DNA from: Phycisphaeraceae bacterium
GTDB lineage: Bacteria > Planctomycetota > Phycisphaerae > Phycisphaerales > UBA1924
Reading direction: 5' to 3'
Assembly: GCA_020639135.1 (NCBI GenBank)
Contig: JACKHE010000005.1
Location: forward strand, 124,531-188,530
DNA length: 64,000 nt
The notes below the pieces were generated by a model that did no database searches, was not told the origin of the DNA, and was given only the letters and a program-made list of their open reading frames with translations. Positions 280 through 16,737 of the stretch are shown here, one piece after another (the stretch's first letter is position 1; each line of letters starts with the position of its first letter). Position numbers and translations under genes: made by a program.

Positions 280-573
280 CCTCCTTGCCTACGAAGACAT
301 CAATACAATTGAGCGCACTCCCCAGGGCCCAATCCTCCAGTCAACCATGAGCACTGCAACATATTGAGAGAGACTGCATACGCAACTTGCGACGATCGGT
401 CCATTTGCGGCATTTGCCGCGTCCTCACAAGCGACTCAGGAAGCCCATACTGGGGCGCCGAGGAATGGACGGGTCAGTTGGAAATGTGCATTGCGCAGCA
501 GGTCGGCGGACTGTGTGGACTCGTAAAGCATACCATGCACACGAATTGAAACACTGACCAAGAGGAGAACGAG

Positions 574-1719
574 ATGGCTTCACTCGCGGAGCACTTGTCA
601 CGAATTGAGCCGGACCAATGGCGTTTGTCTCATGAGTTCTCACAATGCGTTAAGTCGGCGAACGAAGAGCTCTTCAGATGTCACGACACCAGGGCAGCCG
701 AACACGTGTTGAACCTCTGGCTGTCAGCACACCAACCTTGTCTTTTTGGCCGCTCCGCCGCTCGACAAGGGCTCCTCAGTCATTGTGTGCTGTTCGAGTC
801 GGACCTTAACCAGCCGGACGAGCATATCCGGCAAGTGATTCAGACGGCACGAACCGAGTGGACGCGACGAGGTTTCAGAGGTGAACGTAGCGGGTTCATC
901 ATTACCGCAGTGTCGCGCCGCCTTGCCTATGCCGCGCCTGGCCCAGCACTCAAGGCTCTGGCTCAGCGCCTGTGTTCGTTGTACCTGCTTGATGACATTG
1001 AGTGTGACCGCGTCTACCTTGACGATCTATTCTTGCAAGCGCCGGCACTTTCGGGCAGAGTCTGGCGTTGGCGTGCAGGCGTGAACTACTTTGCTACAAA
1101 TGGCGACGGTCGGTGGTGGCAGGATCACCGGATCCCTGGAGGCATCGCGTTCTCCATTAATTCGGTCGGTCACATGGCTCGGTCCGGCGCAGTTTCAAGG
1201 TTGCTAAAGGAAGGTGCGGCTACTTTGGGCATGAATCCCACGGACCTTCCACCCGCGCCCATCGATACTCTCGACAAGGCGCTGCTGATCGCCATGCAGA
1301 CCATCGCGGGAGCGTCAGACGCGGTATCGGGTAAAGCCACCTCACTGCGTCCGCTCGTTTCTGGAGCGCCAGAGTCACACCGCTGCCCTGCACACTTTCC
1401 TTCCAAGCTGCAAGCATTTGACAAGTGTGAATATGATGGCTTCTACCACACGGACTACACCATACCTTCGGAGTACTTCCTCCCCGAGGTTGAAAGACCG
1501 GCTCATGTGCGGCAATGGAACCTTGATTTCACATATCTTGCTGATGCGGGCGTCGATAATCCTGCAGGGGTTACCATGGGCACGGGGCAGATTCTGAGGG
1601 GCACCGACTGCTGCGGATCATATCAGCAAGCCAAGCGTGAGCGCTCCATGGGACAACTTGTCAGCCTGGCAAATGAGCCGAGGCTTGATGGAATTATCGG
1701 CACAGAGCCTACCGCTTAG
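574..1719 (+). CDS. hypothetical protein
   Basis: 381-aa ORF with GGAG at 564-567, six nt before the ATG, and protein-like composition. HQPCLFGRSAARQG and GIAFSINSVGHMARSG weakly resemble YqcI/YcgG-family motifs, but I do not trust this. Confidence 0.6.
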   Translation: MASLAEHLSRIEPDQWRLSHEFSQCVKSANEELFRCHDTRAAEHVLNLWLSAHQPCLFGRSAARQGLLSHCVLFESDLNQPDEHIRQVIQTARTEWTRRGFRGERSGFIITAVSRRLAYAAPGPALKALAQRLCSLYLLDDIECDRVYLDDLFLQAPALSGRVWRWRAGVNYFATNGDGRWWQDHRIPGGIAFSINSVGHMARSGAVSRLLKEGAATLGMNPTDLPPAPIDTLDKALLIAMQTIAGASDAVSGKATSLRPLVSGAPESHRCPAHFPSKLQAFDKCEYDGFYHTDYTIPSEYFLPEVERPAHVRQWNLDFTYLADAGVDNPAGVTMGTGQILRGTDCCGSYQQAKRERSMGQLVSLANEPRLDGIIGTEPTA

Positions 1720-2187
1720 GGCAAACACCGAGGAGATAATCAAGTCAAGTACCGAGGATGTGACAGAACACCCGCATCGGTAACCGCCTGAGGTTTGTGC
1801 CACGTTTCATCAGGCATCGTATCGACATAGTCAGTCGACTGGACACACAATACCAGGACACCGTGCGTTCTGGGCTTCGGCACAGGCAGCACTCGAGATC
1901 CCATGGGGCTAGTGGCTATCCGTAAACCTTATGAATCCCGAGAAAAATGAGCACAATACCGGGTTTACGGATAGCTTCTGGCGTGGGGCCGCGTGCGGCC
2001 TTCTGCCCGAGGTCATCCGGGTACAATGGGTGCGGTGCCAAGGGATGAGTATGTCACGAGACGGTATTCGATCTACACGCATTCGGATACACTTGTATCC
2101 CATGGGGGCAATTTACAGCGGTCGGCCAGATCACGGCGCCATGTTCAAATTGCCGAATTCGATTCTCGGTCACTTGGAGGACACACA

Positions 2188-2997
2188 ATGGCGGGCAGCG
2201 GGGAGCATTGGCAAGAGCACGAGACTTCTCTCAAATCAGTCGATGGCTTGGTGCTTGACGCACGTCTCATTGAAGTAAAGCACTCTGTCACGTCCGTTCT
2301 TCTGGTGCACGGCTTCGGCGTCGATCTGCATGAAGAGGGCACTTTCGACGTACTAGCCACCCGCCTCGCCGAGGCCAAGGTCTCCGTCGCACGCTTTTCC
2401 TTCCGCGGCCATGGAAAGAGTGCCGGCACACAGGAGGGAATGACAATCTCTGGTGAGCGACTCGACTTGACAGCCGCGTACAACTGGATGACACGTCGAT
2501 TATCGCCGCCCTACGCCATTCTTGCCGCGAGCTTCGGCGCGGTTTCGACTCTGCTTCAACTTCGTTCCATCCACAGTAAGCCCGCACGCCTTGTGCTGTG
2601 GAACCCAGTCCTGGACTTGGACGCGGTCTTCGTGGCACCTACCACTGTCTGGGGCAAGAAGAACTTTGGCAAGAGCGCGCTGGCAAAGGCCACATCTCAG
2701 GGCTACTCCATCGTCGATGGCTCCATTCGCGTTGGCCAGGTGTTTCTGGAAGAAACGGCGCTGTACTCTGGCAATCTTGGCGTCTTGGCTTTGTCGTCTG
2801 TACCGACGCTAGTGCTTCATGGTACCGACGACTCATACGTGCCCATTGCATCGTCCCGACAAGTGGCAGACATGCCCAACGTGCGGCTTGTTGAGATTCG
2901 TGATTCTGACCATGGGTTTCCAGATACCGCAAGCGAGGAAACAGCCATTACGGAGGCTGTACGCTGGCTCACCACGACTGCTCCGGATGCTCCATGA
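2188..2997 (+). CDS. alpha/beta-fold hydrolase
   Basis: The ORF track gives 1993-2997; I prefer ATG 2188 (GGAGG at 2176-2180). VLLVHGFGVD, nucleophile-elbow-like LAASFGA, LVLHGTDDSYVP and SDHGF fit the alpha/beta-hydrolase layout. Confidence 0.75.
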   Translation: MAGSGEHWQEHETSLKSVDGLVLDARLIEVKHSVTSVLLVHGFGVDLHEEGTFDVLATRLAEAKVSVARFSFRGHGKSAGTQEGMTISGERLDLTAAYNWMTRRLSPPYAILAASFGAVSTLLQLRSIHSKPARLVLWNPVLDLDAVFVAPTTVWGKKNFGKSALAKATSQGYSIVDGSIRVGQVFLEETALYSGNLGVLALSSVPTLVLHGTDDSYVPIASSRQVADMPNVRLVEIRDSDHGFPDTASEETAITEAVRWLTTTAPDAP

Positions 2998-3653
2998 TGC
3001 AATCGCAAGAAAGAGCCTTGGTAAAGATCGATTCCACCTGTGTCTGCGGAGGGGCCCTCGAAATCGGTGTGCCCTCTGAGGAGTCCATACGTAAGGCCAG
3101 TTCTCAACCGCTGGCAGACGTGAACATCGCAGCTAGGTGCATTGTCAAGAACTTTGTCACCATCCACGAAGGGGTCACGCTAGGGGAAGATGCGATCGTT
3201 GAGGACTACTGCCGCATCGGTGCAAACACGCGAGTTGGCGCCCGATCACGACTTGTCCATCGCGCGTATATATGCGACGACGTGGTCATCGGACAAGAGT
3301 GCCGCATCGCCGGCTTCGTCTGCGACGACAGTCAAATCGAAAGCAATTGCACAGTGATGGGGACGTTGGTACATGACTACAATCAGCCACACCGAGACTG
3401 GTGGGATGTCACCGAGCCGGCCCCCTTAGTGCGTCACCACTCGATTGTCGCGATGTCTTCGACAGTAGTTGGCAGCGTTGTCATTGGGCCGTACGCTTAT
3501 GTAGCCGCCGGCGCCCTCATAACACGCGACGTCCCGTCCTGGCACGTCGCGATCGGACGCAACGAATACGTGCACTGGAACAACTGGAAGGGCGCTCCAC
3601 TACGGGAACTCTTTGCTCACTGGCATTCGTATGAGAGTGGAGCCGGCGCATGA
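2994..3653 (+). CDS. hexapeptide-repeat (left-handed beta-helix) acyl/acetyltransferase
   Basis: ATGA overlap with the upstream stop. Repeated [LIV]-G-x4 turns: VTLGEDAIVEDYCRIGANTRVGARSRLV, VVIGQECRIAGFV, VVIGPYAYVAAGALI. Confidence 0.75.
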   Translation: MMQSQERALVKIDSTCVCGGALEIGVPSEESIRKASSQPLADVNIAARCIVKNFVTIHEGVTLGEDAIVEDYCRIGANTRVGARSRLVHRAYICDDVVIGQECRIAGFVCDDSQIESNCTVMGTLVHDYNQPHRDWWDVTEPAPLVRHHSIVAMSSTVVGSVVIGPYAYVAAGALITRDVPSWHVAIGRNEYVHWNNWKGAPLRELFAHWHSYESGAGA

Positions 3654-4882
3654 CATCTGGTAGTCAACTCAATGTGTTTATGGCATATCAGTTCCGCTCT
3701 TCCAAACTTGGCAAGATAGACCGAGAGTATGCGCTGGCACAGGCAGTGTCAGAAGTCAACAAGTCGCTCCGGGAGGAAGGGTCACATGACGTCGTGTCAT
3801 GGAATGCACTGGAGTTGGAAAGCTGGCACTCAGTTGGAGCGCAAGTTCTTAGCGGCATAAGAGAGAGTGCAGTATTCATCGCGGATATTTCAGAACTAAA
3901 CGCCAACGTGTTGCTTGAACTTGGGTATGCGATCGGCCTGTGCCAGGGTTCCAATTGTGTCACAGTTCACGTGCTCGCGCACGAGTCTCTCGATACTAGA
4001 AGCATCCCATCAGATCTTCTGGGCGGTTATGTTATCACTTACTCGGAGCAGAGCTTTCAGGCAGTCGTCACACGAGTACTCAGAGACTCTGCCGTTCGGC
4101 TTGCCGAGGGGCTGACCGCGCGTGCCGCTAATTCGAGCTGGCGCGAGCTGTGGGGAATCTCGTCAGATCATGCGGTCGATGTCATATGCTCTGAGATACC
4201 CGACGGGACCCGTCCTGACTTCGCACACTATGAGCACCCGAACTTCCTTCGCTACGCGAAATTTGCCGACTTGGACTCGCTTTTCCTCGTCCATGAGATC
4301 CTGGCCTCAGAGTTTCAACATACTCGAGTGCGCGACTACGGGGCCACTGAGTCAATTGCTCAACACGACAGTGGCATCCTTGTTGGTGGTGCCGCTTGGA
4401 ACGCAAGAGTTGAGCGTATTCAGCGTTGCTTGCCATTTGAGTTTATGGATGCCGAGAATCCAGAGACCGATTCGTTGCAAGTCCGAGCTGACGGTTCCAC
4501 GTGGCTCTTCGAGAGCACGTTCGCATCCTCCGGCATACCTGAGACTGACTACTATGTATTCGCCAAGTTTCGGCCGGATGGGCACAGCCGCTTGTTGTTG
4601 TTCGGCGGTGGGTTGACGCACGGCGTGCTCGGTGGAATCAAGACACTTGCACATGTGTCTCCCGGTCCGACCAATGCCTTATATCTCAGCAAGTGGTTTG
4701 GCGCCGCCGCAGACTTGGTGGTAGTTGGTTGCGTTGCCCATCGCGACGGCTATCTCAAGGCTCAAGACTTCAGGGTTTCACCACCGTGCCTAGTATTGCG
4801 GCGATCCGAGCCGGATTCTGAGTTCCATGTAGTCGAGTCCGCTTGCATCTGCAAGGTGCAGCATCAAAGGCCGTGTGAGTAA
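3650..4882 (+). CDS. protein with N-terminal nucleoside 2-deoxyribosyltransferase/TIR-like Rossmannoid domain and unknown C-terminal domain
   Basis: ATGA overlap with the upstream stop. N-terminal ~150 aa: NVFMAYQF...ESAVFIADISELNANVLLELGYAIGL. This resembles the D-x-S...N/D-x-G-x-x-x-E-x-G-Y-A signature of deoxyribosyltransferase-like domains. The C-terminal ~250 aa are not recognised. Confidence 0.6.
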   Translation: MTSGSQLNVFMAYQFRSSKLGKIDREYALAQAVSEVNKSLREEGSHDVVSWNALELESWHSVGAQVLSGIRESAVFIADISELNANVLLELGYAIGLCQGSNCVTVHVLAHESLDTRSIPSDLLGGYVITYSEQSFQAVVTRVLRDSAVRLAEGLTARAANSSWRELWGISSDHAVDVICSEIPDGTRPDFAHYEHPNFLRYAKFADLDSLFLVHEILASEFQHTRVRDYGATESIAQHDSGILVGGAAWNARVERIQRCLPFEFMDAENPETDSLQVRADGSTWLFESTFASSGIPETDYYVFAKFRPDGHSRLLLFGGGLTHGVLGGIKTLAHVSPGPTNALYLSKWFGAAADLVVVGCVAHRDGYLKAQDFRVSPPCLVLRRSEPDSEFHVVESACICKVQHQRPCE

Positions 4883-4883
4883 T

Positions 4884-5672
4884 ATGGTGACACGGATCAT
4901 TGTTGCGGGGCTCGCTCGGCGGCAGGATCGAAGGCGATTGGTTGAGCAACAGCTGCGCGCCAACAACGTCGCCAACTATGTGTTCGCAGCTGACCTTGAT
5001 CTCACCGTCGACTGGCAAGAGTGGGAACCGGATGATATTCGTCGGCTCACTGCTAGCTGCTATCCTTGGCGTCTGAATGACTCTACAAATCCCTGGTGGA
5101 ATCGCAGTATGACTTTGGGCGAAATCGCCTGCACGCTGACGCACTGGGCCATTTGGAACTATGCGGCCCAGCTGCAGTACACTAGTCTAATTGTGCTCGA
5201 AGATGACGCCATTCTGCTGCATGCGTTCGAAGATCGAGAACGTCTGATACAGAGTCTCTTCTGCTTAGATCCTTATTGGGATCTCTTGTACCTTGGGCGC
5301 GAACGACTCGAACCGGACCGTGATAACTGCGGCGAATTCGTCCGGCCGGGCTTCAGCTATTGCACACATGGGTACGCGCTGTCCCGCAAGGGAATTCAGC
5401 TGTTGCTGAGCACCCCATTAATGACGAGCATTATCCCTGTTGATGAGTTTCTACCAGCCATGTATATGGAACATCCACGTCATGATGTGCGAAGGCGATT
5501 CTCGCCAATTCTCGCTGCTTATGGGCTAAATCGAGATATAGTTGAAGTTAAGGGGTCTGCTCATATGGGTAGTGATACAGAGAATGCCCCGCTAATTGAG
5601 TCGGAACCGCCGTCGATTAGCAAGTCAACTCTGCCAGCACACGATGGGGAGGGTCTACAGAATGCAGAGTAG
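4884..5672 (+). CDS. glycosyltransferase family 25-like
   Basis: The ORF track starts at 4875 (GTG); ATG 4884 lies one nt after the upstream stop. RIIVAGLARRQDRR, MTLGEIACTLTHWAIW, LIVLEDDAILL, LYLGRE and CTHGYALSRKG match the GT25 (LPS/collagen galactosyltransferase-type) pattern. Confidence 0.7.
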   Translation: MVTRIIVAGLARRQDRRRLVEQQLRANNVANYVFAADLDLTVDWQEWEPDDIRRLTASCYPWRLNDSTNPWWNRSMTLGEIACTLTHWAIWNYAAQLQYTSLIVLEDDAILLHAFEDRERLIQSLFCLDPYWDLLYLGRERLEPDRDNCGEFVRPGFSYCTHGYALSRKGIQLLLSTPLMTSIIPVDEFLPAMYMEHPRHDVRRRFSPILAAYGLNRDIVEVKGSAHMGSDTENAPLIESEPPSISKSTLPAHDGEGLQNAE

Positions 5673-6261
5673 CGGAACAGAGAAGTTGGCGGACTGGATA
5701 TGGCTTTGCGAGCTTGCGGATTGCTGCGAGTCCCTTGGTTACACTCAAGGCTACATGGCCGCGGCGGCACACTGTCGTGGGGCGCTCTCCGGGGAGGCTA
5801 TGAGCGGCGTTCTCCGCGCCCCGTTCTCTATGGTGAGGCGCCGCGCAGTTCACCTGACTCGGTTCTTGCCGCGGGACGATGCGGTTGCCAAGCTTGCTGA
5901 GGTACTTGCCGCTGACGAATGTCCGGTCGTTCGTCACGAAGCGGCCTTCTGCCTAGGTACCTTTAGGAATGAGCTCGCGCTAGTCGCTCTTTCGAAGTCC
6001 GCGCTCAGCGATTCGGATGAGCTGGTCCGGCATGAGGCTTCCGAAGCGCTCGGAGACATGGGGCTTGAGGCAGCGAGAGAGACACTTGAGTTGGTACGGA
6101 TGGATAGCTGTGAATCGGTACGGCGAACGGCGGTGATGGCCCTGCAAGAGCTTGATATGCGCTGCATTCAACAATCAAGTGAAGTCATGAAAGCAGCTCG
6201 TATCGAGCCACCACCAGTTAACAATGAGGGTGATCCAGGGCGCTTCGCGGGGGCGAGTTGA
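5662..6261 (+). CDS. HEAT-repeat protein
   Basis: ATG 5662 overlaps the upstream stop by 11 nt. Three HEAT-like repeats: PVVRHEAAFCLGTF, ELVRHEASEALGDMG, ESVRRTAVMALQEL. Confidence 0.7.
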   Translation: MQSSGTEKLADWIWLCELADCCESLGYTQGYMAAAAHCRGALSGEAMSGVLRAPFSMVRRRAVHLTRFLPRDDAVAKLAEVLAADECPVVRHEAAFCLGTFRNELALVALSKSALSDSDELVRHEASEALGDMGLEAARETLELVRMDSCESVRRTAVMALQELDMRCIQQSSEVMKAARIEPPPVNNEGDPGRFAGAS

Positions 6262-6636
6262 TAGGCTGGCTTCTGGACAGGAAGTGGACTCTGCGGTGGG
6301 CACTCAATGGCGCAAGCCTCACCCACAGGCAGTTGACCGGGTGTCATACGAGAGGTATCCTTCTTCAAGCCGCACGTGCACCTATATGGACTGCTCACTT
6401 GACAAACGTGTCTGGCGCATGTCAGAAGACAAATGTCATTGAGACCAAAGGGGATAGCGGCGAGTGCCGACTAACGCACATCCCTTGCTGCGGCCGTCGA
6501 TGCATTCTCCGCGAACTGCCTCTAGCTTCAGTGAGATGTCCGGCCAGTCCGTATTCAAGCGCATGCACGTGCATACAGCGAATGTTCGGCACATCCGACC
6601 AATGCAGGCCGGCTATGCGGCTCTATAGTTCTTGTC

Positions 6637-7644
6637 ATGGTTCGACGAAGAGGTCGTCATCCCCGTGCGCTGCGAGCACCAATCTGGCTCCAGATCCCGT
6701 GCTTCATCATCGAGTTGGTCCCATTGACGGTGCCAATGTTAGTAATGGCCTCGGGTTTTCGGATCGCGGGAGGAATCATGCTGCCCATCGCAGGCTTCAT
6801 GTCACATTGGATCTACTTATCACTGACAAGGCAGACGAGACGAAGGGTTAACCAGACATACATCCGCCGTCGTGCGCGCAAACATGATGGTCCGTTCATT
6901 TTGCTTTGCCGATCGTACGAACAGGGTGGCAGATTCACGACCTCCGTGGATATTCCGAACTACGGTATCACCGACCTGAGGCTCATCGAGGCATTGATCT
7001 ACGACCTGAGTCACAGGAACACTGTCGTTGCTCTTGGGGACCAAGATATTCCGAAAGCCGAGCATCAAGGCCGTGCGTTGTATGTCGCAGAAGTTGCAAA
7101 GTCTAGCGAGAACATCATCGTCAGTGCGACCACCGGCGACACACTCTTAGACTCCGAAAAACTCTGGCAGAGACTGGTGCTCCGTCTCGCGGAATCGTCT
7201 CGTTGCATTGTTGTCGTCCCCGGACGCACGCATGGAGTCATTGAAGAACTCCTCCTTCTGCGGAGTGGCGGGTTCGGACACAAGACCTTTGTTTTTATGT
7301 GGCCCGATACGCATCCCTATACTGCGTTGTGTGCAGATTCCCGCGAGTGGGAGGTAGTGCGGGAAGAAATCTCTGCGAACGGCGTGATGCTCCCGCCACA
7401 CGAGCCCGGAGGTGCCTGGGTTAGACTGAATGACCAAGAGCCAGTGGATAGGGTTGTGTCACCAATTCCGCTGCGAAACGTACTCGAGCCGGTCATCGAG
7501 TGTCTTGCGGAGAGTGGTCGGTGGCTATCCGACGTTACAGAAGTGATCGAAATGTGCGAACTTTGTGCAGATCCGGAAAGATACGGGCATCTCTGGGGCT
7601 ATATGTCCGAGCAGAGAGAGTTCAGCGACCGCATGTGCCGGTAA
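6637..7644 (+). CDS. membrane-anchored protein with Rossmann-like (possibly LOG/SLOG-like) soluble domain
   Basis: Two hydrophobic helices near the N-terminus (IWLQIPCFIIELVPLTVPMLVMA; GGIMLPIAGFMSHWIYLSL). A beta/alpha-patterned domain follows (PFILLCRSYE, TVVALGDQD, CIVVVPGRTHGVIEELLLL, KTFVFMWPD). The resemblance of VPGxxxGxxEE to the LOG/SLOG PGGxGTxxE loop is weak and judged by eye. The start codon is uncertain. Confidence 0.5.
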   Translation: MVRRRGRHPRALRAPIWLQIPCFIIELVPLTVPMLVMASGFRIAGGIMLPIAGFMSHWIYLSLTRQTRRRVNQTYIRRRARKHDGPFILLCRSYEQGGRFTTSVDIPNYGITDLRLIEALIYDLSHRNTVVALGDQDIPKAEHQGRALYVAEVAKSSENIIVSATTGDTLLDSEKLWQRLVLRLAESSRCIVVVPGRTHGVIEELLLLRSGGFGHKTFVFMWPDTHPYTALCADSREWEVVREEISANGVMLPPHEPGGAWVRLNDQEPVDRVVSPIPLRNVLEPVIECLAESGRWLSDVTEVIEMCELCADPERYGHLWGYMSEQREFSDRMCR

Positions 7645-7930
7645 GTCAGGCCTTTTCAAACCGAGCTGACACAGACACGTCGATCTCCCGGGCAAGGTGC
7701 TCTGTTGATGTCAGTTCGGCCCCTATCTACGCGTGATGTTCATCGCAAGTGCGGCATTGTGACCAATTTACGGTCAGGATGAATATGGGCTTCTCAGCAG
7801 GCGCCATCGGCAGCCCAGTCGCAATGATCGGGTCGAGCCATGCATCCCGAAGAGCAGGGCGATGCTCCGAGTAACAGAATCTACTCTGAACGGTACACAG
7901 ACGTTGAAATGCGGAATACCCTAAAATCGA

Positions 7931-8500
7931 TTGTCGGTCGGATGGAGCTGCACCGTGACAGATTGTAAAGAAACCGCCCACGGTGATGGAACGGCGAAGG
8001 ACTTTGTCTTCATTAGCCACTCTCGCAGGGATCGGGCGTTTGTCGATCGCCTTGTCCGAGTCCTTCGGAGAGGCGGGATCGCGACCTGGCCAGATACCAA
8101 CGAGCTAGCCCCAGGAGAGAATTGGCATTTGGCTATTGAGGCAGGCATTCGCCAGTCTGCGGCCTTTCTATTTATGGCCAGTGCCGAATCGATCAACTCA
8201 CAGTGGATCTCGACAGAACTCAAGGCCGTTTTCGGGAAGGGCACCTGCGTTATTCCAGTAGTGCTCGATAACGAAGGTAAGCATGGCCTTCCTTCCTTCC
8301 TTCCTTCCTTCCTTCGCGATTGTGAATGGGTCGAATTCCGGACCGGTACGAGGCGGCTTTTGACCAACTCCTCAGGGCTCTCCTGCCGCTTCGCGCCGAG
8401 TCTGCGGTCAAACCAAGAGCCGGTCAAGCCAAAGGCTACGAGTTCCTCAGCTATGCTGAGCATGATGCTCCATTCGTGGATAGACTCAAGGAGTTCCTGA
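7931..8500 (+). CDS. TIR-domain protein (first TIR of an apparently frame-broken tandem-TIR gene)
   Basis: KDFVFISHSRRDRAFVDRLVRVLRRGGIATWPD...IRQSAAFLFMASAESINSQWISTELKAV...CVIPVVLD is a canonical bacterial TIR layout. The likely start is GTG 7955 (GGAG at 7944-7947) rather than TTG 7931. The last 52 codons (8342-8497) are low-complexity and overlap the next ORF. Confidence 0.8.
   Translation: MSVGWSCTVTDCKETAHGDGTAKDFVFISHSRRDRAFVDRLVRVLRRGGIATWPDTNELAPGENWHLAIEAGIRQSAAFLFMASAESINSQWISTELKAVFGKGTCVIPVVLDNEGKHGLPSFLPSFLRDCEWVEFRTGTRRLLTNSSGLSCRFAPSLRSNQEPVKPKATSSSAMLSMMLHSWIDSRSS
8287..8314. repeat. perfect tetranucleotide microsatellite (CCTT)7 inside the TIR coding sequence
   Basis: Direct reading: ccttccttccttccttccttccttcctt. 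It is translated LPSFLPSFL in the current frame. Confidence 0.95.
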
Positions 8501-8817
8501 AGCAGCGCAACAACGGGTACTGGGACTATCGTGAGAGCGATCGAAATTACCATGCAGAATTTTACCTCGAACTCGAATCTGTCATTCAGGAAGCTGCGGC
8601 GGTGCTATCCCTTTTATCACCTTGGTGGAAGCAAGCGCCCACGGCATTCAAGGAGTACTACTTTGCCATTGAGGTCGGGGTCCCCGTGTTCCTGCTGCGA
8701 GTCCGGAATCCCGGGCCCACGTTTGCTGTCGCAGGGATGCCATACATCAATATCTCGACAGATTACCATCTAGGTTTCAGGCAACTCGACAGAGAGTTGT
8801 TGAGAAATGGCCTTTAA
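8326..8817 (+). CDS. TIR-domain protein (second TIR of the frame-broken tandem-TIR gene)
   Basis: YEFLSYAEHDAPFVDRLKEFLKQRNNGYWDYRESD...IQEAAAVLSLLSPWWKQAPTAFKEYYFAIEVGVPVFLLRV is a second TIR domain. It overlaps the previous ORF by 175 nt in another frame. The N-terminal DRYEAAFDQLLRAL reads like the linker that should follow TIR 1. Confidence 0.75.
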   Translation: MGRIPDRYEAAFDQLLRALLPLRAESAVKPRAGQAKGYEFLSYAEHDAPFVDRLKEFLKQRNNGYWDYRESDRNYHAEFYLELESVIQEAAAVLSLLSPWWKQAPTAFKEYYFAIEVGVPVFLLRVRNPGPTFAVAGMPYINISTDYHLGFRQLDRELLRNGL

Positions 8818-8865
8818 TCATGTGGCGGTCACCGGGCGACTGCCGGACTCAACAAAGGAGAGAGC

Positions 8866-9237
8866 ATGGCTGAAAGGAAAGTAATATTCGTCGCGTTTGC
8901 GATTGAAGACGAGCGGCAGAGGGATCTCCTGAAGGGGCAGTCTCTTAATACGGCGTCGCCGTTTGAGTACACCGACATGTCCGTCAAAGAGCCATACAGC
9001 TCTGAATGGAAGGAGCGTGTCCGCACCCGAATTCGTCGCTCGGATGGAATAATCGCATTGGTGAGTAAGAACTCACTTACATCCAGCGGGCAGAAATGGG
9101 AGATCGCGGTCGCCAGCGAGGAAGGAAAACGCGTCCTCGGCATCTGGGCATACGCCGATGACAGGACCAACCTCCTAGGTGTCAGAACTGTAGCGTGGAC
9201 CTGGAACGCCATTGGGGACTTTATTGACAGCTTTTGA
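8866..9237 (+). CDS. ThsB/DUF1863-type TIR-like protein
   Basis: GGAG at 8857-8860, ATG at 8866. KVIFVAFAIEDERQRDLLKGQ...FEYTDMSVKEPYSSEWKERVRTRIRRSDGIIALVSKNSLTSSGQKWEIAVASEEGKRVLGIW matches the ThsB TIR-like pattern as I remember it. Confidence 0.75.
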   Translation: MAERKVIFVAFAIEDERQRDLLKGQSLNTASPFEYTDMSVKEPYSSEWKERVRTRIRRSDGIIALVSKNSLTSSGQKWEIAVASEEGKRVLGIWAYADDRTNLLGVRTVAWTWNAIGDFIDSF

Positions 9238-9249
9238 CAAGGTGGTGTC

Positions 9250-10224
9250 ATGCGCATCGCACTCATTGTCGGTATTGATTACTACGAACACGGTGGGGCA
9301 CTGTATGGCTGCGTGGATGATGCGCACGTTGTTAAGGCGGTTTTGGATCGTCATGGCGACGGGGCGGTCAATTTTGATTGCAAGCTCCTCACTGGAACAG
9401 GTCCGAATGATCGGGTCAATCGCAATGCCCTCAAGGATCACGTTGAAGAGTTATTCAAGGCACCGGCCGAGATTGCGCTGTTCTATTTTGCTGGACACGG
9501 CCATATTGAGGCGACCGGCGGCTATCTGCTGGCAACAGACTCACAACGCGGGGACGAGGGTCTCTCTCTTTCCGAGGTGCTGACGTTGGCAAATGCGTCG
9601 CCCGCACGTAATAAAGTTGTTGTGCTCGACAGCTGTCACTCTGGGATTGCTGGGAACCCTCCTTCATCCGGCAACCTCGCTGCGCTGTCTGAGGGAATGA
9701 CGGTGCTTACAGCATCGACGGCTGACCAATACGCTACGGAAGAGCATGGAAATGGAATCTTCACGACACTGCTGGTGGATGCTCTGCAGGGTGGGGCTGC
9801 CAATCTCACAGGTGACATAACTCCCGGTAGCGTGTACGCGCACGTAGATCAATCTCTCGGCGCGTGGGAGCAGCGACCGGTATTCAAAACAAACGTGCGG
9901 CAGTTCGTCTCCCTGCGGAAGGTTCCTCCGCCAATCGAGTTGGACGCGCTGCGCCAGATCATCGAGTTCTTTCCCGGACCAGGGGCAGAGTTCCAACTCG
10001 ATCCCACATTTGAACCTGAGTCAAAGGGTCGAGATTCTGACATGCCGCCTCCTGATCCCGAGAACACGCAAAGGTTTGCGGTGCTGCAACGCTATAACCG
10101 GCTGAACCTGGTCGTGCCGGTGGGGGCACCCCATATGTGGCACGCCGCGATGGAGAGCAAGACTTGCAAGCTGACAGTCCTTGGTGAGCACTACCGCCGC
10201 CTTGTGGAGCGGCAGCGAATTTAG
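9250..10224 (+). CDS. caspase-like (peptidase C14 / metacaspase-fold) protease with unknown C-terminal domain
   Basis: ATG lies 12 nt after the upstream stop. [12 protein letters not shown], His context FYFAGHGH and Cys context [10 protein letters not shown] are present. About 150 aa at the C-terminus are unassigned. Confidence 0.85.
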
Positions 10225-10253
10225 GGCGGTATCTGACTGCCAACGACCGATGA

Positions 10254-10469
10254 TTCCATTGTCCGAATCGTCTGGAGCATTCTCCGCGAGCGATCTTCAT
10301 ACTGAGAGTAGATTCCGCGTTTCCAGACTCCAAAGTCCGACTTGGACGACAAAGAGTTCAACCGGAGTTCCGTCACCCCGGGCAGAAGGTCGGGCGGCAT
10401 TGGCGTTTCCACAAGGCCGCGATCGACGATTGGCTGAATGCAGGCGGATGTCCGGGACGCGGTCTGTGA
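10254..10469 (+). pseudogene. relic of an excisionase-family (MerR-like) HTH gene
   Basis: The frame is open over 10254-10466 but contains no ATG/GTG/TTG. It ends ...QKVGRHWRFHKAAIDDWLNAGG..*, the signature C-terminus of excisionase-type HTH proteins. The N-terminal half is degenerate. Confidence 0.4.
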
Positions 10470-10579
10470 TGCCAAGACGGCAAAGTCACTCTACAAGGGG
10501 CCCCTGGCGAACAACTACGGCGAATGATTCCGGCTATTGGGTGGCTTGGTCGAGGTCACACCGCTGTCGGGCCGATAGA

Positions 10580-11596
10580 ATGGGGACGCATATGGCTACT
10601 TCCCCAGAACAAATCCGATTGCTGGTCGATTCGTTCGCCGAGCGCGATGATGAACGCTTCCGTACGGTCGCACTTGACATCGCAGCCGCAGCGGCAAGGG
10701 CGGGGGATCAAAAGCTCGCAAAATCTGTCCGGGCCATGGTTGATCGATCTCGAAGATCCGCGCTGCCATCGGTCGGTCCGAAGGCCGTGCCGATATCTCG
10801 TCCGGAGGGCGAGCTAGCGTCGCTGTTGACGGTTTCATATCCGAAGACTCGGTTCGTTGACATGGTCTTACCTGCCAAGTCGAAGGCCATCCTGGAACGG
10901 ATGCTCGAAGAGAACCGGTCGGCCACTACGCTACGGGCTCATGGATTCGAGCCGAGGAGAAGAGTTCTACTCGCGGGCCCTCCAGGCTGTGGCAAGACCA
11001 TGACTGCACGAGCAATCGCTGGGGAGACTGGATTGCCGCTTCTCGTGGTCCAGTTTCATGCCCTAATCACCAAGTACATGGGCGAGACGGGCGCGAAGCT
11101 CCATGCCATCTTTGAGTCAATGTCATCGACCAGAGGGGTCTACCTCTTTGACGAGTTCGACGTTGTCGGTACGAGCCGATCAGCGAGCAACGATGTTGGT
11201 GAAGCCCGACGAGTGGTCAACTCTTTTCTCCAACTGCTCGAACATGACGACTCAGAGAGCATCGTCATCGCAGCCACCAACATGGCAGGCACGCTCGATG
11301 AGGCGTTATTTCGGCGATTTGATGACATCGTCCAGTTCGGCAAGCCGAGTGGCGCTGAAGTTCGGAAACTTGTCGAGAACAGGCTTGCGGCCTTCGCTCC
11401 TCTGAAACTTCGCTGGACTGATATCTCAACAACCGCCAGGGGCTTAAGCCATGCCGAGGTTGTAAAGGCCTGCGAGGATGCTGCCAAGGCAGTGGTGCTG
11501 GGACACAAATCTGTGGTGACAACGGCCCAGATTGTCAGCGCTCTCAAGGCTCGAAGGCGCCCCTCGGCTCGGGCGAACCGCTCCCGAACGACGTAG
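10580..11596 (+). CDS. AAA+ ATPase (IetA-like)
   Basis: The ORF track starts at 10181; ATG 10580 or 10592 is preferred. Walker A LLAGPPGCGKT, Walker B VYLFDEFD and IVIAATN...LDEALFRRFD form a classic AAA+ module behind a ~130-aa helical N-domain. Confidence 0.85.
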   Translation: MGTHMATSPEQIRLLVDSFAERDDERFRTVALDIAAAAARAGDQKLAKSVRAMVDRSRRSALPSVGPKAVPISRPEGELASLLTVSYPKTRFVDMVLPAKSKAILERMLEENRSATTLRAHGFEPRRRVLLAGPPGCGKTMTARAIAGETGLPLLVVQFHALITKYMGETGAKLHAIFESMSSTRGVYLFDEFDVVGTSRSASNDVGEARRVVNSFLQLLEHDDSESIVIAATNMAGTLDEALFRRFDDIVQFGKPSGAEVRKLVENRLAAFAPLKLRWTDISTTARGLSHAEVVKACEDAAKAVVLGHKSVVTTAQIVSALKARRRPSARANRSRTT

Positions 11597-11605
11597 CATG
11601 ATTGC

Positions 11606-14092
11606 ATGTCGCAGCTCCCGCATCTGCAACTGATTGGTGGAGTCAGCGGAGTTCCGTATACCCGCCCCAAGTCCGGCTTCGGCGAATTCCAGACTCCTCC
11701 GAGAGATCGGATTGGACACGCTCGCTCATTACGGCAGAGCCTTCAATCTGCTCTTGCTCAAGGGCAAGCGGAGATCGAAGCACAACCTACGCCCGACGCA
11801 GTCACTGGATTGCAGTTCGTGATCGAGAGCCATGCGGGATATGACCTGCGACTTGAGAGCCTTGAGAATCGTCGGAAGGGCATCAAGCTACTTCACGTTA
11901 GTCAAGATGGCGATGTCCAACGGGCCGTAATCTTCGTTCCGCGGACAGCGTACGGTACTCTGTCGGATCGGATCGACGAATACGAAACTCGTGTCAGAGA
12001 CTCAGGCAATCCTTGGCATGCCCCTCTAATCGAGAGCATCGAGCGGATTCGGTTAGCAATTGCGGAGGATCTATGGTCTGACCCTACGCCATTCCCCGCT
12101 GATGAAGGTGCACTTTGGTGGGAGGCCTGGATTCCGCTTGATGGTAAAGAACCGGCTGTCATTCATGGCGAGTTGATCGAGTTGGCGGTGAGCCTTGGGA
12201 TCGGGATCGGTCGGCGTTGGCTCACGTTCTCAGAGCGGCTCGTCACCCTCGTCAAGGCACGCCCTTCGGATTGGGCTCGATCGCGTCAGTTGCTCGAAAC
12301 AGTGGCGGAACTACGAGCCCCCGTCGAGCCTGCTGCCCCGTATCTCAATCTATCGCCGATTGAGCAGGCTGCGTGGATCAATAACCTCAGAGCGAGGATT
12401 CGGATTGCTCATCCCAATGCTCCTGCCGTTTGCTTGCTCGATACCGGAGTGGATCGAGGACATCCGCTCCTCGAAGATTCGCTTCTGGAAGCCGATTGGC
12501 AAGCCGTCGATAGCGATTGGGGATCTGCGGACAATGCTGAGCAAGAGGGGCACGGTCCACATGGAACGTTGATGGCAGGGACGGCACTCTTTGGCGATCT
12601 AGGCGAGCGGCTTCGAGAATTTGGCACCCTCAGCTTGAGCCATCGTCTTGAGTCCATCCGAATTCTGCCGAGGCGGGGCAACAACGATCCTGAGCTTTAC
12701 GGAGACATCACGCAGCAGGCGGTCTCTCTCGCTGAAGTAGCTGCCCCCGCTCGCCGCAGAGCCGTATGCCTCGCCGTCACCGCTAAGGACACATCTGGTC
12801 AAGGCGCCCCCAGTTCGTGGTCTGCTGCCGTTGACCAGTTGGCATATGGCGACGGGGCGTTAACTCGGATGGTTCTCGTATCGGCAGGGAACATTCGGGA
12901 GTACACAAACGGGTACGCCTACCCACAGTCGAACCTCGATGCAGCGGGAATACTCGACGATCCCGCTCAAGCGTCGAACGCACTGGTCGTCGGAGCATTC
13001 ACTCAACGAACGCAGCTATCGCCAGATTACGCTGGATGGCGTGCAATCGCTCCCGCAGGCGGCCTCGCTCCCATGAGCCGTACGAGCGCTGCATGGGACC
13101 AAGGTAATCGCTCCCCGTGGCCACTCAAGCCCGACATCGTTTTTGAGGGCGGCAACTTGATCACCGACGCCTCGTCAGCGATCTCTCCATGCGCCGAAAC
13201 AGAACTGCTGACGACATCGGTCGCAACTACCGGCGCGCTCTTCGACACGAACTCTGGAACCAGCGCTGGGGTCGCTCAGGCATCTCGATTAGCCGCCCGA
13301 ATCATGGCGAAGTACCCTTCATTGAGACCCGAGACCATTCGGGCGCTTCTTGTTCACTCCGCCGAATGGACGGACGCGATGCGAGAGCAAGTGCCAGGCA
13401 CGACCAAGGAAGTGGTTCGCCGTCGAGTTCGTACCTTCGGCTATGGTGTTCCGAACGAGTTGCGAGCCATGTCGAGCTTGTCGAACGCCGTCACGCTCGT
13501 ATCCGAATCAGCGATTACGCCGTACACGACCGGCAGCAATGGAGCGAAAGCGAATCAGATGGGGCTTCACGAGTTGCCCTGGCCGAGCGATGCTCTGTAT
13601 GCCCTCGGTGATGTCCAAGTCCGCATGCGGGTCACTTTGTCGTACTTCATCGAGCCCAATCCCGGGCGTCGGGGCCGAATCCCTCGGTCTCGCTACGCAT
13701 CGCATGGTCTCCGATTCGATGTGCTTCGTCCTGGCGAAACGGTCGATGAGTTTCGACAGCGGGTTTCTGCCGCGGAGCGGGACGACCCCGATGCAGACAT
13801 CGACACGACGGGCGAGTCGAGGGACTGGGTCATCGGAGTCAATGGCCGAGCGCGAGGCTCCCTCCAAGCAGATTGGTGGGAGGGCTCAGCCACGCAACTT
13901 GCGGGGAGTCATGCGATTGCCGTCTACCCCGTCACGGGGTGGTGGAAAGAACGGTCCTTCCTCGGCAAGGTCGAATCACCCGCCCGCTACAGCCTCGTCG
14001 TCTCGATCGAGACTCCTCCGGAAGCGATCGATCTGTATGCGCTCCTGACAGCGCAGACAGAGATCCAGGTCGAAGCTGTAGGCAACGCGTAG
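11606..14092 (+). CDS. cytoplasmic subtilisin-like S8 serine peptidase (IetS-like)
   Basis: Starts 9 nt after the ATPase stop. Triad in D-H-S order: CLLDTGVD, GHGPHGTLMAGTA, NSGTSAGVAQASRLAA. No signal peptide; long N- and C-terminal extensions. Confidence 0.85.
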   Translation: MSQLPHLQLIGGVSGVPYTRPKSGFGEFQTPPRDRIGHARSLRQSLQSALAQGQAEIEAQPTPDAVTGLQFVIESHAGYDLRLESLENRRKGIKLLHVSQDGDVQRAVIFVPRTAYGTLSDRIDEYETRVRDSGNPWHAPLIESIERIRLAIAEDLWSDPTPFPADEGALWWEAWIPLDGKEPAVIHGELIELAVSLGIGIGRRWLTFSERLVTLVKARPSDWARSRQLLETVAELRAPVEPAAPYLNLSPIEQAAWINNLRARIRIAHPNAPAVCLLDTGVDRGHPLLEDSLLEADWQAVDSDWGSADNAEQEGHGPHGTLMAGTALFGDLGERLREFGTLSLSHRLESIRILPRRGNNDPELYGDITQQAVSLAEVAAPARRRAVCLAVTAKDTSGQGAPSSWSAAVDQLAYGDGALTRMVLVSAGNIREYTNGYAYPQSNLDAAGILDDPAQASNALVVGAFTQRTQLSPDYAGWRAIAPAGGLAPMSRTSAAWDQGNRSPWPLKPDIVFEGGNLITDASSAISPCAETELLTTSVATTGALFDTNSGTSAGVAQASRLAARIMAKYPSLRPETIRALLVHSAEWTDAMREQVPGTTKEVVRRRVRTFGYGVPNELRAMSSLSNAVTLVSESAITPYTTGSNGAKANQMGLHELPWPSDALYALGDVQVRMRVTLSYFIEPNPGRRGRIPRSRYASHGLRFDVLRPGETVDEFRQRVSAAERDDPDADIDTTGESRDWVIGVNGRARGSLQADWWEGSATQLAGSHAIAVYPVTGWWKERSFLGKVESPARYSLVVSIETPPEAIDLYALLTAQTEIQVEAVGNA

Positions 14093-14262
14093 CTGGCATT
14101 TGAAAGGTCTGCCGAGCTGGTTGTTCCTCAACATGCGTTCTTGGCGCAAAGATGCCGGGCATTCCGATTACTTGAAGCCAATAGGTATCCCGCCGTGACC
14201 TGACCGGAAGGGCTGTTCACGGAAAGGCAATAGCTCGTGGGGCCATGCCGTAGGCAACCTCT

Positions 14263-14288
14263 AGCGTCCACCTGTGGACGCTTTTTTT
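14263..14288 (+). terminator. rho-independent terminator candidate
   Basis: 8-bp perfect stem agcgtcca/tggacgct (14263-14270 and 14275-14282), 4-nt loop cctg, then a T7 run (14282-14288). It lies 170 nt downstream of the S8 gene. Confidence 0.6.
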
Positions 14289-14369
14289 GCATCTTGAGCC
14301 CAAGGGATGCATAAGATCGTTGCTATAGCTGAAATGCATCAATGATACTTATCAGGTGGAAATGTAGCT

Positions 14370-15494
14370 CTAGCAAGTAACTAAAGCCTGCATGACCTTC
14401 TCCGACTCCCCATCATGCAGGTGGTAGTACAAATCGAGGATCGAGGAGCTTGAATGGCCCATCCACGCCATCGCCATGCGGTAGGGGACGCCGGAGTTGG
14501 CGATCATCGAGGCGAAGTGGTGCCTCATCGAGTGGGTTTTCAGGCGGCTGTCAGCTCCGACGGCCCTGGCGGCGGTCTTGATCCTGGCCAGGATCATCCG
14601 GTCGCGCATCGGCGGGAGCATCCAGTCGCCTGAGCGGGGCAGCCCCTCGACAACTGGACGGATCCGAGGATGGATTGGCACTGACCGCTCCTCTTTGTCT
14701 TTAGTTGTCCCGTTGGAGCCGCCGCGACGGATCCGAAAAAATCCCAGCTCACCCTTGTCGAGGAGCACATCCTCCCAGCGGAGGGCCAGCAGCTCGCCAA
14801 CGCGCATCCCGGAATAGGCCAGGACGGCGACAGCTTCGGTGTAGGGGCTGTCTAGGCGCCCAATGATCGCCTCGACCTCCTCGGTGGTCGGGCACGGCTG
14901 CGGGCGAGCCTTGGCCTTGGGTAGTTCGGCCCCCGCGAACTCGTACGTCGGCGTCATCTTCTGCCGCCACGCCCACTTGAAGAGCTGCTTCCAGAGGACC
15001 ATGGCGCTGTAGATGGACTTGGGGCTGTAGGGGGCGCGCTGCTTGTGGCGCTTGGACTCCAGCCACGCCTTGAAGCGGTACAGGTCACGCTCGACAGCGC
15101 GGTCGGCATAGACGAGCATGATGGATTTGCAGAACTGCCGGATCTTCTCCAGCTCGGAACGGTACTTGGCCTGTGACTTGGGCGCGAGGCCCTTGTTCTC
15201 GCAATGCTCGGAGTACTGATCAGCAAGATCGTCGATGGTGATGCGCTCGATACGATCTTGAGCACGACCAGCGTCGAGACGCTGCTGGATTTCATACGCC
15301 TTGCGCTTTGCGGCCTGTTTGTTCCGGGTGCCCAGCCCAACGACGCGGCGCACGCCATCTACATCTGTGAAGCGGGCAGAATAGGCCTGATAGGTGACGG
15401 TCCTCCGCTGCCCGCCCTTGGTCTTGCGGTTAACCGTGCGGCGATAGATGGTGACCTCGGTGCCATCAACCTTCTCAGCATTGGGGTACGCCAT
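14370..15494 (-). CDS. tyrosine recombinase / phage-type integrase
   Basis: C-terminal catalytic region: LAYSGMRVGELLAL, HSMRHHFASM, GHSSSSILDLYYH (R...HxxR...Y pattern). Confidence 0.9.
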   Translation of the reverse strand: MAYPNAEKVDGTEVTIYRRTVNRKTKGGQRRTVTYQAYSARFTDVDGVRRVVGLGTRNKQAAKRKAYEIQQRLDAGRAQDRIERITIDDLADQYSEHCENKGLAPKSQAKYRSELEKIRQFCKSIMLVYADRAVERDLYRFKAWLESKRHKQRAPYSPKSIYSAMVLWKQLFKWAWRQKMTPTYEFAGAELPKAKARPQPCPTTEEVEAIIGRLDSPYTEAVAVLAYSGMRVGELLALRWEDVLLDKGELGFFRIRRGGSNGTTKDKEERSVPIHPRIRPVVEGLPRSGDWMLPPMRDRMILARIKTAARAVGADSRLKTHSMRHHFASMIANSGVPYRMAMAWMGHSSSSILDLYYHLHDGESEKVMQALVTC

Positions 15495-15497
15495 GGG

Positions 15498-15788
15498 TCA
15501 GTCGTCCTCCCTCGTGGAAGGGGCGGAGAACGTACCGCTGCTGCCGGTCGGGCGCAACCGTTTTCGCCTGGATCGACCGCTAAAAAACCACTCCACCAGC
15601 CCATCGCGCCAGAATCTCAGGGGATTCCCTCGTCTAACGGACCTCTTACAACAGCGGTCCTCGCTCACCCAGCGGTAGATCGTGGACTTGGAAACTTGGA
15701 GGAGCGCGGCGGCCTGGTCCGGCGTGAGGATGGGCGGGAAGCGGTCCGCGTCGATGGCCTCTCGGATCTCCTCCCTAGAGAACTTCAT
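15498..15788 (-). CDS. excisionase-family HTH DNA-binding protein
   Basis: An internal ATG at 15788 is preferred over the ORF-track start 15917, whose N-terminus is R/P/S-rich. LTPDQAAALLQVSKSTIYRWVSE is an HTH. The stop lies 3 nt from the integrase ATG. Confidence 0.7.
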   Translation of the reverse strand: MKFSREEIREAIDADRFPPILTPDQAAALLQVSKSTIYRWVSEDRCCKRSVRRGNPLRFWRDGLVEWFFSGRSRRKRLRPTGSSGTFSAPSTREDD

Positions 15789-16050
15789 CGATGATCTCGC
15801 GGGGCTGGGCGCGCCGGGTGTTCGTCCCGATGTGCGGGTTGCACTCTTGGAAGGGTCGCATCGGTGGGGAGGGGTTGACGTCGCCGCGCGTGGCGACCCC
15901 ACCGCCACCACCGTCATTGCCGAGGATCGCGCCCATAACTCCGAGCGCCACTCCGACGACGACAGCGATTGGGAAGAAGCACGAGTTCAGGAAGGCGTCA
16001 AGTGCGCGTTCAGCGTCAAACACCGCGATCATGCTGATCAATTGATTCAT
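15775..16050 (-). CDS. small membrane protein, paralogue A (NPxPPxRxFQ motif family, unknown)
   Basis: GGAGAA six nt before the ATG at 16050. One hydrophobic helix (FFPIAVVVGVALGVMGAIL), then GNDGGGGG, then TRGDVNPSPPMRPFQ. Overlaps the xis start by 14 nt. Confidence 0.55.
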   Translation of the reverse strand: MNQLISMIAVFDAERALDAFLNSCFFPIAVVVGVALGVMGAILGNDGGGGGVATRGDVNPSPPMRPFQECNPHIGTNTRRAQPREIIDEVL

Positions 16051-16110
16051 GGCGAGTTCTCCGTGTTGACAGGGTGATGGGCGTCATCCGTCCGGCTTCT
16101 TGGCGGGTGC

Positions 16111-16661: not shown

Positions 16662-16737
16662 CTCAGCGCCTCCCCGTCGTGTGCGGGTCGATCCGGCGTC
16701 GGCTTGAAGAACGCAGCGATCCCGAAGTGGGGACACC

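Follow-up and report, generated by a model that had tools for sequence, protein, structure and literature searches.

We analysed a 64,000-nt stretch of a Phycisphaeraceae bacterium genome (Planctomycetota; GenBank assembly GCA_020639135.1, contig JACKHE010000005.1, forward-strand positions 124,531 to 188,530), here called the window, and concentrated on two overlapping open reading frames (ORFs) that encode TIR domains and lie upstream of a short TIR gene and a caspase-like protease gene. All coordinates are positions in this 64-kb window, and labels such as L001 denote compared loci, L055 and L056 being contigs from Logan. A preliminary description, made from the sequence, had read the two frames as one tandem-TIR gene split by a single nucleotide close to a (CCTT)7 microsatellite, and had offered as explanations either an assembly or mutational frameshift or a contingency locus, prone to slippage, that switches the expression mode of the two TIR domains. 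ORF1 (7931–8500, + strand, 189 aa) matched Pfam TIR_2 at 1.3e-23 over profile positions 1–111 of 122, and ORF2 (8326–8817, + strand, 163 aa), which is read in the −1 frame with respect to ORF1 and overlaps it by 175 nt, matched the same family at 2.5e-11, bearing out the overlapping TIR frames of that description. Its start for ORF1, a TTG at 7931, is less likely than a GTG at 7955, which is preceded by GGAG at 7944–7947 and at which the gene call on Logan contig L056 also begins.

One gene in two frames

Comparing codons with the orthologues at L001, L002, L003 and L009 located the point at which the frame changes. The 5′ part of the tandem-TIR gene (7955–8346, + strand) carries strands and helices βA to βE of the first TIR domain (TIR1) in the ORF1 frame, running from GTG 7955 to a truncated glycine codon, GG at 8345–8346, and stays collinear with the 271-aa orthologues as far as ...WVEFRTG. 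The 3′ part (8347–8817, + strand, with its stop at 8815–8817) continues in the −1 frame with helix αE of TIR1 (YEAAFDQLLRAL), a linker and the complete second domain (TIR2). From the tract to the junction, the ORF1 frame reads GG(CCTT)7 and then CGC GAT TGT GAA TGG GTC GAA TTC CGG ACC GGT ACG. Where the orthologues have the codons CGx-xxx-GGG/GGA-TAC-GAG, the window has CGG-ACC-GG-TAC-GAG, so that at the frame break site (8345–8347, + strand) the glycine codon is without its third base and T8347 opens TAC (Tyr), the conserved codon that follows. In the protein, EWVEFRTG (ORF1 frame) is followed by YEAAFDQLL (ORF2 frame), against a homologue consensus of (Q)WVDFRxGYExALxQLL. Because the codons align in this way, we place the lesion at the lost third base of the glycine codon 8345–8346. 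The preliminary description had let the frames meet at G8341; the orthologue alignment moves the junction 5 nt downstream, after FRTG, to 8346/8347. Once the glycine codon is repaired, the joined frames do give a single tandem-TIR protein, 287 aa long at seven repeat units, and in an AlphaFold2 model of it (mean predicted local distance difference test score, pLDDT, 87.7; predicted template-modelling score, pTM, 0.81) the break sits in the βE–αE loop of TIR1.

The repaired protein, used as the joined-frame query against a collection of 5.8 billion proteins, gave 57 matches, 54 of which were full-length relatives of ~271 aa that cover 92–100% of the query at no more than 70% identity, the best homologue in the set being only 69–70% identical. 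A scan of the GTDB species-representative genomes found the tandem-TIR family at 48 loci in Thermoanaerobaculia, Chloroflexota (many of them Anaerolineae), Ignavibacteria, Flavobacteriales, Planctomycetota, Desulfobacterota, Acidobacteriota, Gammaproteobacteria and one Methanoregula metagenome-assembled genome. A single uninterrupted tblastn high-scoring segment pair spanned both TIR domains (residues ~25–295) in 50 of 50 related loci, against which the window copy is the only one with a frame break. Across the orthologous loci the two TIRs thus always form one polypeptide and are never separate genes.

The deletion recurs in independently assembled reads. In Logan, each Sequence Read Archive run is assembled separately at k = 31 from k-mers seen at least twice. 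The window's caspase-like protein is on record on two further contigs. Logan contig SRR12358675_50903 (L055, 37,764 nt) is 100% identical to window positions 8287–16224 with no gap, the break included, and Logan contig SRR12358676_282851 (L056, 12,555 nt) is 100% identical to positions 1–8315, likewise with no gap; together they match 16.2 kb of the window at 100%. An independent assembler thereby reproduced TTCCGGACCGGTACGAG from the reads, and because this k-mer assembly repeats the missing base without a branch at the deletion site, an assembly artefact is unlikely. The assembly error that the preliminary description had kept in view is argued against by the two Logan assemblies with their same missing base, and its mutational alternative gains from the same assemblies and from orthologues that are always a single fused gene of ~271 aa. 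A literature search for the accessions SRR12358675 and SRR12358676 found no paper.

It could still be asked if the real genome has an intact glycine codon and a normal 287-aa gene, the break being a sequencing or assembly artefact. The missing base does lie in a short G/T run (GG|T) within a CCGG/ACCGGT context, 32 nt from the microsatellite, and the gene otherwise looks selected by its substitution ratios (see below). However, two assemblers agree base for base over the 16.2 kb, and the Logan contig, built only from k-mers seen at least twice, passes the site unbranched. Nor is there another frameshift in ~25 kb of domain-verified window genes: Pfam scans of ~45 ORFs, an incomplete check as many ORFs have no Pfam match, found full-length domains and no other split one among GspD/E/F, the Tle1-like protein, the Pkinase-FGE fusion, IetA/IetS, the caspase and ThsB. 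We therefore consider an artefact very improbable; the one-base deletion appears genuine and an assembler artefact is excluded, with systematic read error as the form that an error could still take.

Age of the break and probable products of the broken gene

The ratio of nonsynonymous to synonymous substitution rates (dN/dS) of the repaired gene against L001–L003 was 0.17–0.19 overall, 0.18–0.20 in TIR1 and 0.15–0.19 in TIR2, and was 0.15 among those orthologues themselves. Since a ratio of ~0.18 indicates that most of the divergence accumulated under purifying selection, the break appears to be recent, and an ancient pseudogene was ruled out by the same ratio, found in both halves. The protein is 68–69% identical to its closest orthologues, as compared to 85–88% for its two cassette neighbours, and its dN is about twice theirs (0.19 versus 0.08–0.09); a three-taxon branch comparison of dN, carried out by hand, was not decisive. 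The locus resembles an ordinary frameshift pseudogene in a mobile defence island: a single-base indel affects a gene that every relative keeps intact, and the surrounding island is low in GC and bears an integrase. Nothing essential distinguishes it from that class, the only unusual addition being a nearby, lineage-specific coding microsatellite.

Translation from GTG 7955 would now yield TIR1 without αE, followed by 51 out-of-frame residues. TIR2 is probably not made, because it has no ribosome-binding site of its own. A different outcome would be that the gene is split and still functional, TIR1 with its new C-terminal tail cooperating with a separately initiated TIR2, as TIR domains act via oligomers. 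Both halves bear the mark of purifying selection (dN/dS 0.15–0.20), an in-frame ATG lies upstream of an intact TIR2, the gene calls on the Logan contig include ORF2, and TIR2 keeps W225 and E234 (repaired-protein numbering), which are invariant in the family. Yet the orthologous protein is a single polypeptide at all 50 loci, and the substitution ratios mostly reflect the history before the break. ORF1 also ends 175 nt past the ATG of ORF2, which therefore cannot be translationally coupled to it and has no Shine-Dalgarno motif, and TIR1 would lose αE, which is part of the fold in the structural model. On balance, we consider a functional split unlikely.

Even less probable, to the point of being hardly credible, is programmed recoding, in which a −1 ribosomal frameshift or transcriptional slippage at ~8345 would yield the full-length protein. 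ORF2 does lie in the −1 frame, and a −1 shift directly after GGT 8345–8347 would produce the family consensus as FRTGYEAAF. However, no slippery heptamer of the form X XXY YYZ lies at the junction or close to it, the folding of the next 103 nt is not better than that of shuffled sequences (z = −0.65), a homopolymer that could support transcriptional slippage is missing, and the 50 orthologous loci all do without a frameshift. Programmed frameshifting was accordingly rejected, there being neither a slippery site nor structure beyond chance.

The (CCTT)7 tract and its unit number

The perfect (CCTT)7 microsatellite (8287–8314, + strand) is in frame, as the preliminary description had it, and encodes LPSFLPSFL in helix αD of TIR1. 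Tandem Repeats Finder reported it as a period-4 array at 8287–8315, 100% perfect, and as the only microsatellite in the window. Tetranucleotide repeats of at least five units were otherwise absent from the window and from the 523 kb of sequence at orthologous loci (587 kb in total). The 16-nt core of the tract occurred in none of 100 dinucleotide-preserving shuffles, and we estimate that 64 kb would hold ~2e-10 period-4 tracts of 28 nt by chance. In the model, the duplicated stretch (residues 111–119) would lie in the αD region between βD and βE, where the local pLDDT dips to 82.

The homologues indicate where the tract came from. They read G-LPxFL-R where the window reads G-LPSFLPSFL-R, and the four-residue insertion is unique to the window among the 54 homologous proteins. 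Written as CTT CCT TCC TTC CTT, LPSFL already amounts to about four CCTT units, and three more (12 nt, in frame) give (CCTT)7; L009 encodes LPSFL too, there with no more than (CCTT)2. No comparable tract was found in the orthologues (50 loci, 54 proteins), and because it is absent from all of them we do not regard it as a conserved regulatory device. We infer that the tract is a lineage-specific expansion of this proto-repeat by slippage, three units above the ancestral LPSFL, and an event separate from the deletion.

We enumerated the products of different unit numbers. As sequenced, alleles of 3–11 units give only truncated products of 120–185 aa; a 1-nt repair of the glycine codon makes the protein full-length at 4, 7 and 10 units (283, 287 and 291 aa). 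The gain and loss of one unit have the frame effects that the preliminary description gave them, and the stops it named are present, a TGA at 8323–8325 that abuts ATG 8326 and a second TGA at 8361–8363. An eight-unit allele enters the ORF2 frame and at once meets TGA 8323–8325. As this stop blocks the only compensating frame, no repeat number restores the protein, and a repeat that rescues the deletion was rejected on this enumeration. With the deletion present there is no ON state, and the tract is therefore not an operating ON/OFF switch. The TGAATG (8323–8328, + strand), which joins the stop met by the eight-unit allele to the first ORF2 start codon, was judged incidental: its ATG comes from conserved (Q/E)-W codons, xxA-TGG, in all orthologues, and its TGA from Cys-Glu codons specific to the window. 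No Shine-Dalgarno sequence lies before ATG 8326; such a motif is present at the genes downstream, ATG 8866 of the short TIR gene being preceded by AAAGGAGAGAGC.

The Logan contigs bear on the length of the tract in the sampled reads. L056 terminates in GG(CCTT)7C at 8315 (L056:10666) and L055 begins with (CCTT)7CGC at 8287 (L055:1). Between the terminal k-mers of the two contigs lies one 31-mer, G(CCTT)7CG, the sole 31-mer that holds both flanks of a seven-unit tract. The tract edges are the only contig break in ~50 kb, and the break is seen in both runs. By de Bruijn reasoning of our own, built on the description of Logan and not the output of a tool, two possible next bases (G or C) at the node GG(CCTT)7C would end one contig there, and two possible preceding bases (G or T) at the node (CCTT)7CGC would start another, which is the pattern expected from a mixture of seven-unit alleles and alleles of at least eight units. 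A pure population of seven or of eight units would produce no break, a pure population of nine or more would shift both ends by one base, and a mixture of six and seven units would place the break four bases further in. Stutter in the library could be another source of such contig ends, as could metagenomic (CCTT)n DNA of unrelated origin whose k-mers collide with those of the tract. This pattern suggests that seven-unit alleles and alleles of at least eight units coexist in the sampled reads, and length instability is plausible because both contigs end exactly at the tract borders; the tract is thus probably still unstable in the sampled population. A scan of Joint Genome Institute metagenomes with the repaired protein found no sequence from the same species, and no protein of an alternative allele is on record in the 5.8-billion-protein collection.

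We also weighed a working phase-variation locus, in which seven units would give TIR1 with the alternative tail and eight units would give TIR1 up to TGA 8323 with a coupled TIR2 from ATG 8326, tuning an accessory Thoeris sensor. In its favour are a perfect seven-unit tetranucleotide repeat inside a defence gene, the neat TGA-ATG junction made by one added unit, and the Logan contigs skipping the one seven-unit-specific 31-mer in two runs. However, no unit number gives an intact tandem-TIR protein, and the eight-unit products would lack βE of TIR1, which by the structural model probably would not fold. The start at ATG 8326 is without a Shine-Dalgarno sequence, the tract occurs in none of the orthologues, the window holds no second repeat of this kind, the protein collection records no alternative allele, and the contig breaks could also stem from k-mer collisions or stutter. 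Such a locus is in our judgement unlikely. Of the preliminary description's proposal, the slippage-prone tract is plausible in so far as the contig ends at its borders fit seven and at least eight units; the toggle of TIR expression does not, given an enumeration without an ON state, a tract found in no orthologue, a break that lies outside the tract and a TGAATG that is a by-product.

Phase-variable defence genes with tetranucleotide repeats are known from the Type III and Type I restriction-modification 'phasevarions' of Haemophilus and Neisseria. The window locus shares with them a 4-nt repeat in the coding sequence of a defence-related gene, in which each unit gained or lost shifts the frame, and indirect signs of heterogeneity. 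In contrast to them, it has no ON state, only seven units, a tract unique to its lineage and a frame break outside that tract. Set against the usual marks of a simple sequence repeat (SSR) contingency locus, the tract has a unit that is not a multiple of three and lies in a coding region; unit gain and loss do not alternate a functional ON frame with OFF frames, the tract is not kept in orthologues, and the 64-kb window has no further microsatellite that would make it one of several such loci. A version that is only slightly less doubtful is that the tract is hypermutable and length-heterogeneous (seven and at least eight units, in two runs) and, in cells or ancestors that lack the deletion, toggles the accessory tandem-TIR sensor of a type IV Thoeris system between ON (4, 7 or 10 units) and OFF. 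If this were true, no earlier SSR contingency switch would have been seen in a defence gene of the TIR/Thoeris kind, and the window would show this one shortly after a second mutation had fixed it in the OFF state; if the length heterogeneity is real and biological, the tract would be an uncommon case of an SSR lying within an immune gene of the TIR type.

A putative type IV Thoeris-like cassette and its island

Two further genes follow on the same strand, 12 nt apart. The first (8866–9237, +) encodes a ThsB-type TIR of 123 aa, matched by ThsB_TIR (4.2e-9) and by the PADLOC ThsB models and 85–87% identical to orthologues of the same length, and the second (9250–10224, +) encodes a caspase-like (C14) protease of 324 aa (Peptidase_C14 3.8e-16, residues 1–214) with a C-terminal extension of ~110 aa. 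Counted in the translations, the TIR motif GQKW78-E79IAV contains W78-E79, and the caspase has VLDS-C129-HSG and H83 in AGHGH. Type IV Thoeris is a two-gene operon of a short TIR (PF13676/PF08937) and a caspase-like (C14) protease (bioRxiv 10.1101/2024.10.24.620036; Rousset et al., Science 2025), in which the TIR makes N7-cADPR on infection and thereby activates an arginine-specific promiscuous protease, and the catalytic residues are E79 of PsTIR (E79Q) and C129 of PsCaspase (C129A) (bioRxiv 10.1101/2024.10.24.620036). Because E79 and C129 of the window proteins fall at the residue numbers mutated in PsTIR and PsCaspase, a match of motif and numbering and not an alignment to the Ps proteins, 8866–10224 would be a type IV Thoeris-like pair, comprising a putative signal-producing TIR and its caspase effector.

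Other likenesses to type IV Thoeris are the adjacency of a 123-aa ThsB/TIR_2 protein and a 324-aa C14 caspase-like protein with a C-terminal extension, the position in a defence island beside other systems (IetA/IetS) and an integrase, and an identity of 81–82% between the window caspase and the equally long (324-aa) 'caspase family protein' of Pseudomonas aeruginosa/Pseudomonadota. The known system has two genes, whereas the window has an extra upstream gene with two fused TIR domains, now frameshifted, and for the window pair both N7-cADPR production and protease activation are predictions from sequence. The NCBIfam type IV model gave no match, and the PDB sequences gave none for the caspase or the short TIR.

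The TIR-caspase pair is present in L001–L004, L009 and L052–L055. The order tandem-TIR, 123-aa TIR, 324-aa C14 protease is kept in L001–L004 and L009, where the flanks are unrelated; L012 and L019 have a rearranged version. L052, the closest relative (90% identity), has the two-gene core and no tandem-TIR gene, as do the P. aeruginosa loci L053 and L054. Caspase homologues number more than 7600; the best 120 are 81–100% identical, the top one being the window's own protein, are nearly all 324 aa long and include proteins of Pseudomonas aeruginosa, Aeromonas, Alcaligenes, Lysobacter, Nitrospira, Acidobacteriota and Chloroflexi. A caspase-like protein that is 81–90% identical across distant phyla and always preceded by the 123-aa TIR is unusually strongly conserved for a mobile defence gene. 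In the two P. aeruginosa loci, a 159-aa TIR_2 gene follows the pair (L053:4997–5476 and L054:4997–5476), an accessory TIR of another kind in another position. A promoter and terminator scan of 7400–10400 found nothing.

By analogy, the tandem-TIR gene may be an accessory extra TIR of the cassette, as its place in the gene order suggests. Thoeris loci with several ThsB genes, type III included (bioRxiv 10.64898/2025.12.03.692087), also have more than one TIR gene per effector, and accessory TIRs vary between loci, with a tandem-TIR gene upstream in the window's clade and the 159-aa TIR gene downstream in P. aeruginosa. They differ from the window in that its two TIRs are fused in one chain of ~271 aa, belonging to a family that is also found away from a caspase, for instance in MoxR/DUF58/VWA clusters of Anaerolineae, and the match to the type III ThcB4 model was negligible (16 bits against a cut-off of 220). 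The conserved 271-aa family appears to be uncharacterised: a literature search on bacterial tandem-TIR proteins returned nothing relevant, and Foldseek with the AlphaFold2 model retrieved single TIR domains only (SPARTA TIR-APAZ, Cat1, PdTIR and AbTir), with no single-chain tandem-TIR analogue among them. From sequence context, it may have a role outside type IV Thoeris.

In 13 loci, mostly of Anaerolineae (L014, L015, L023, L024, L026, L030, L032–L034, L036, L038, L041 and L042), the tandem-TIR gene lies directly downstream of a gene for a large VWA-like membrane protein. Most of these also have MoxR-like AAA, DUF58-like and second large VWA genes nearby, a conserved arrangement that resembles Bat/aerotolerance clusters, and all are without a caspase or obvious Thoeris effector.

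Taken together, 7955–8817 is probably one tandem-TIR gene of ~287 aa, the first and accessory member of a mobile three-gene cassette, recently inactivated by a real one-base deletion, with the tract a separate feature and no switch. The ancestral proto-repeat CTT CCT TCC TTC CTT (LPSFL) would have gained three CCTT units by replication slippage, in frame and with duplication of LPSF in αD; loss of the third glycine base at 8345–8346 broke the gene in the βE–αE loop. Several observations weigh against this interpretation. The Logan assemblies probably come from the same or sibling read sets as the window assembly, which keeps a systematic read error possible. A dN/dS of 0.18 shows little decay, and a very recent break and a split that still functions look alike by this measure, with translation of TIR2 from ATG 8326 a further possibility. 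Of 137 columns conserved in the clade, 24 are altered in the window copy and at most 11 in any other member, and the window reads ACG where the orthologues have their ATG start. Like the low identity to the closest orthologues, these are slight indications of unusual evolution, and the deviant columns and the lost ATG could reflect longer-standing relaxation or neofunctionalisation in place of a recent break. Finally, the part played by the tandem-TIR protein in the cassette is read from gene order, and Anaerolineae carry the family without a caspase.

The island that holds the cassette has ~55% GC and a third-position GC (GC3) of ~0.6, as compared to 67% and 0.8–0.9 in the host core. Directly after the caspase gene lies a complete anti-phage pair of IetA (AAA ATPase) and IetS (S8 subtilase) at 10592–14092; the TTG-started ORF 10181–11596 over-extends IetA, for which the Logan gene call begins at 10592. 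There follow a tyrosine integrase (14370–15494, −), a small HTH_17 gene (~15498–15788, −) and an N6/N4 DNA methylase (16738–17691), a stretch (14370–17691) that probably marks the end of the island, the GC content rising from 55% to 64–69%. Upstream, in the same island, a 410-aa ORF (3650–4882) weakly resembles the TIR domain of CAP12/Pycsar effectors, scoring 22.3 bits (E = 1.4e-4) where the threshold is 24.7, and may be a further divergent TIR-like protein.

Further along the window, a HerA/FtsK-like ATPase ORF in the region 23058–25576 (−) has its Walker A motif at residues 5–38 of the called product; its stop-to-stop frame reaches 25136 and overlaps by 10 nt a 149-aa ORF in another frame (25127–25576), which could reflect overlapping genes or a second frame break. 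The lowest GC of the window (0.46–0.54) occurs at 28900–32200, a compositionally foreign insert with a 644-aa ORF (28955–30889, −) that has no Pfam match. In the high-GC host core (47900–63600), the type II secretion genes for GspF (58393–59730), GspE (59652–61268) and a secretin (61345–63567), a Tle1-like phospholipase (51279–52409) and a Ser/Thr kinase fused to an FGE-sulfatase domain (43410–45755) all appear intact.

The feature is thus real and its explanation ordinary; the phase-switch reading fails its key test, the ON state, and survives only as a former switch of low probability. In an annotation, both overlapping 'TIR genes' belong to a single broken gene with its junction at 8346/8347, the inactive accessory member of a three-gene type IV Thoeris-like cassette. 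On a small scale, the tract shows cleanly how a microsatellite is born in coding sequence, here out of unremarkable codons for LPSFL. The locus also illustrates turnover within a defence island, in which an accessory sensor gene is lost and the highly conserved TIR-caspase core is kept intact, and the widespread 271-aa tandem-TIR family would be a reasonable target for Thoeris researchers.

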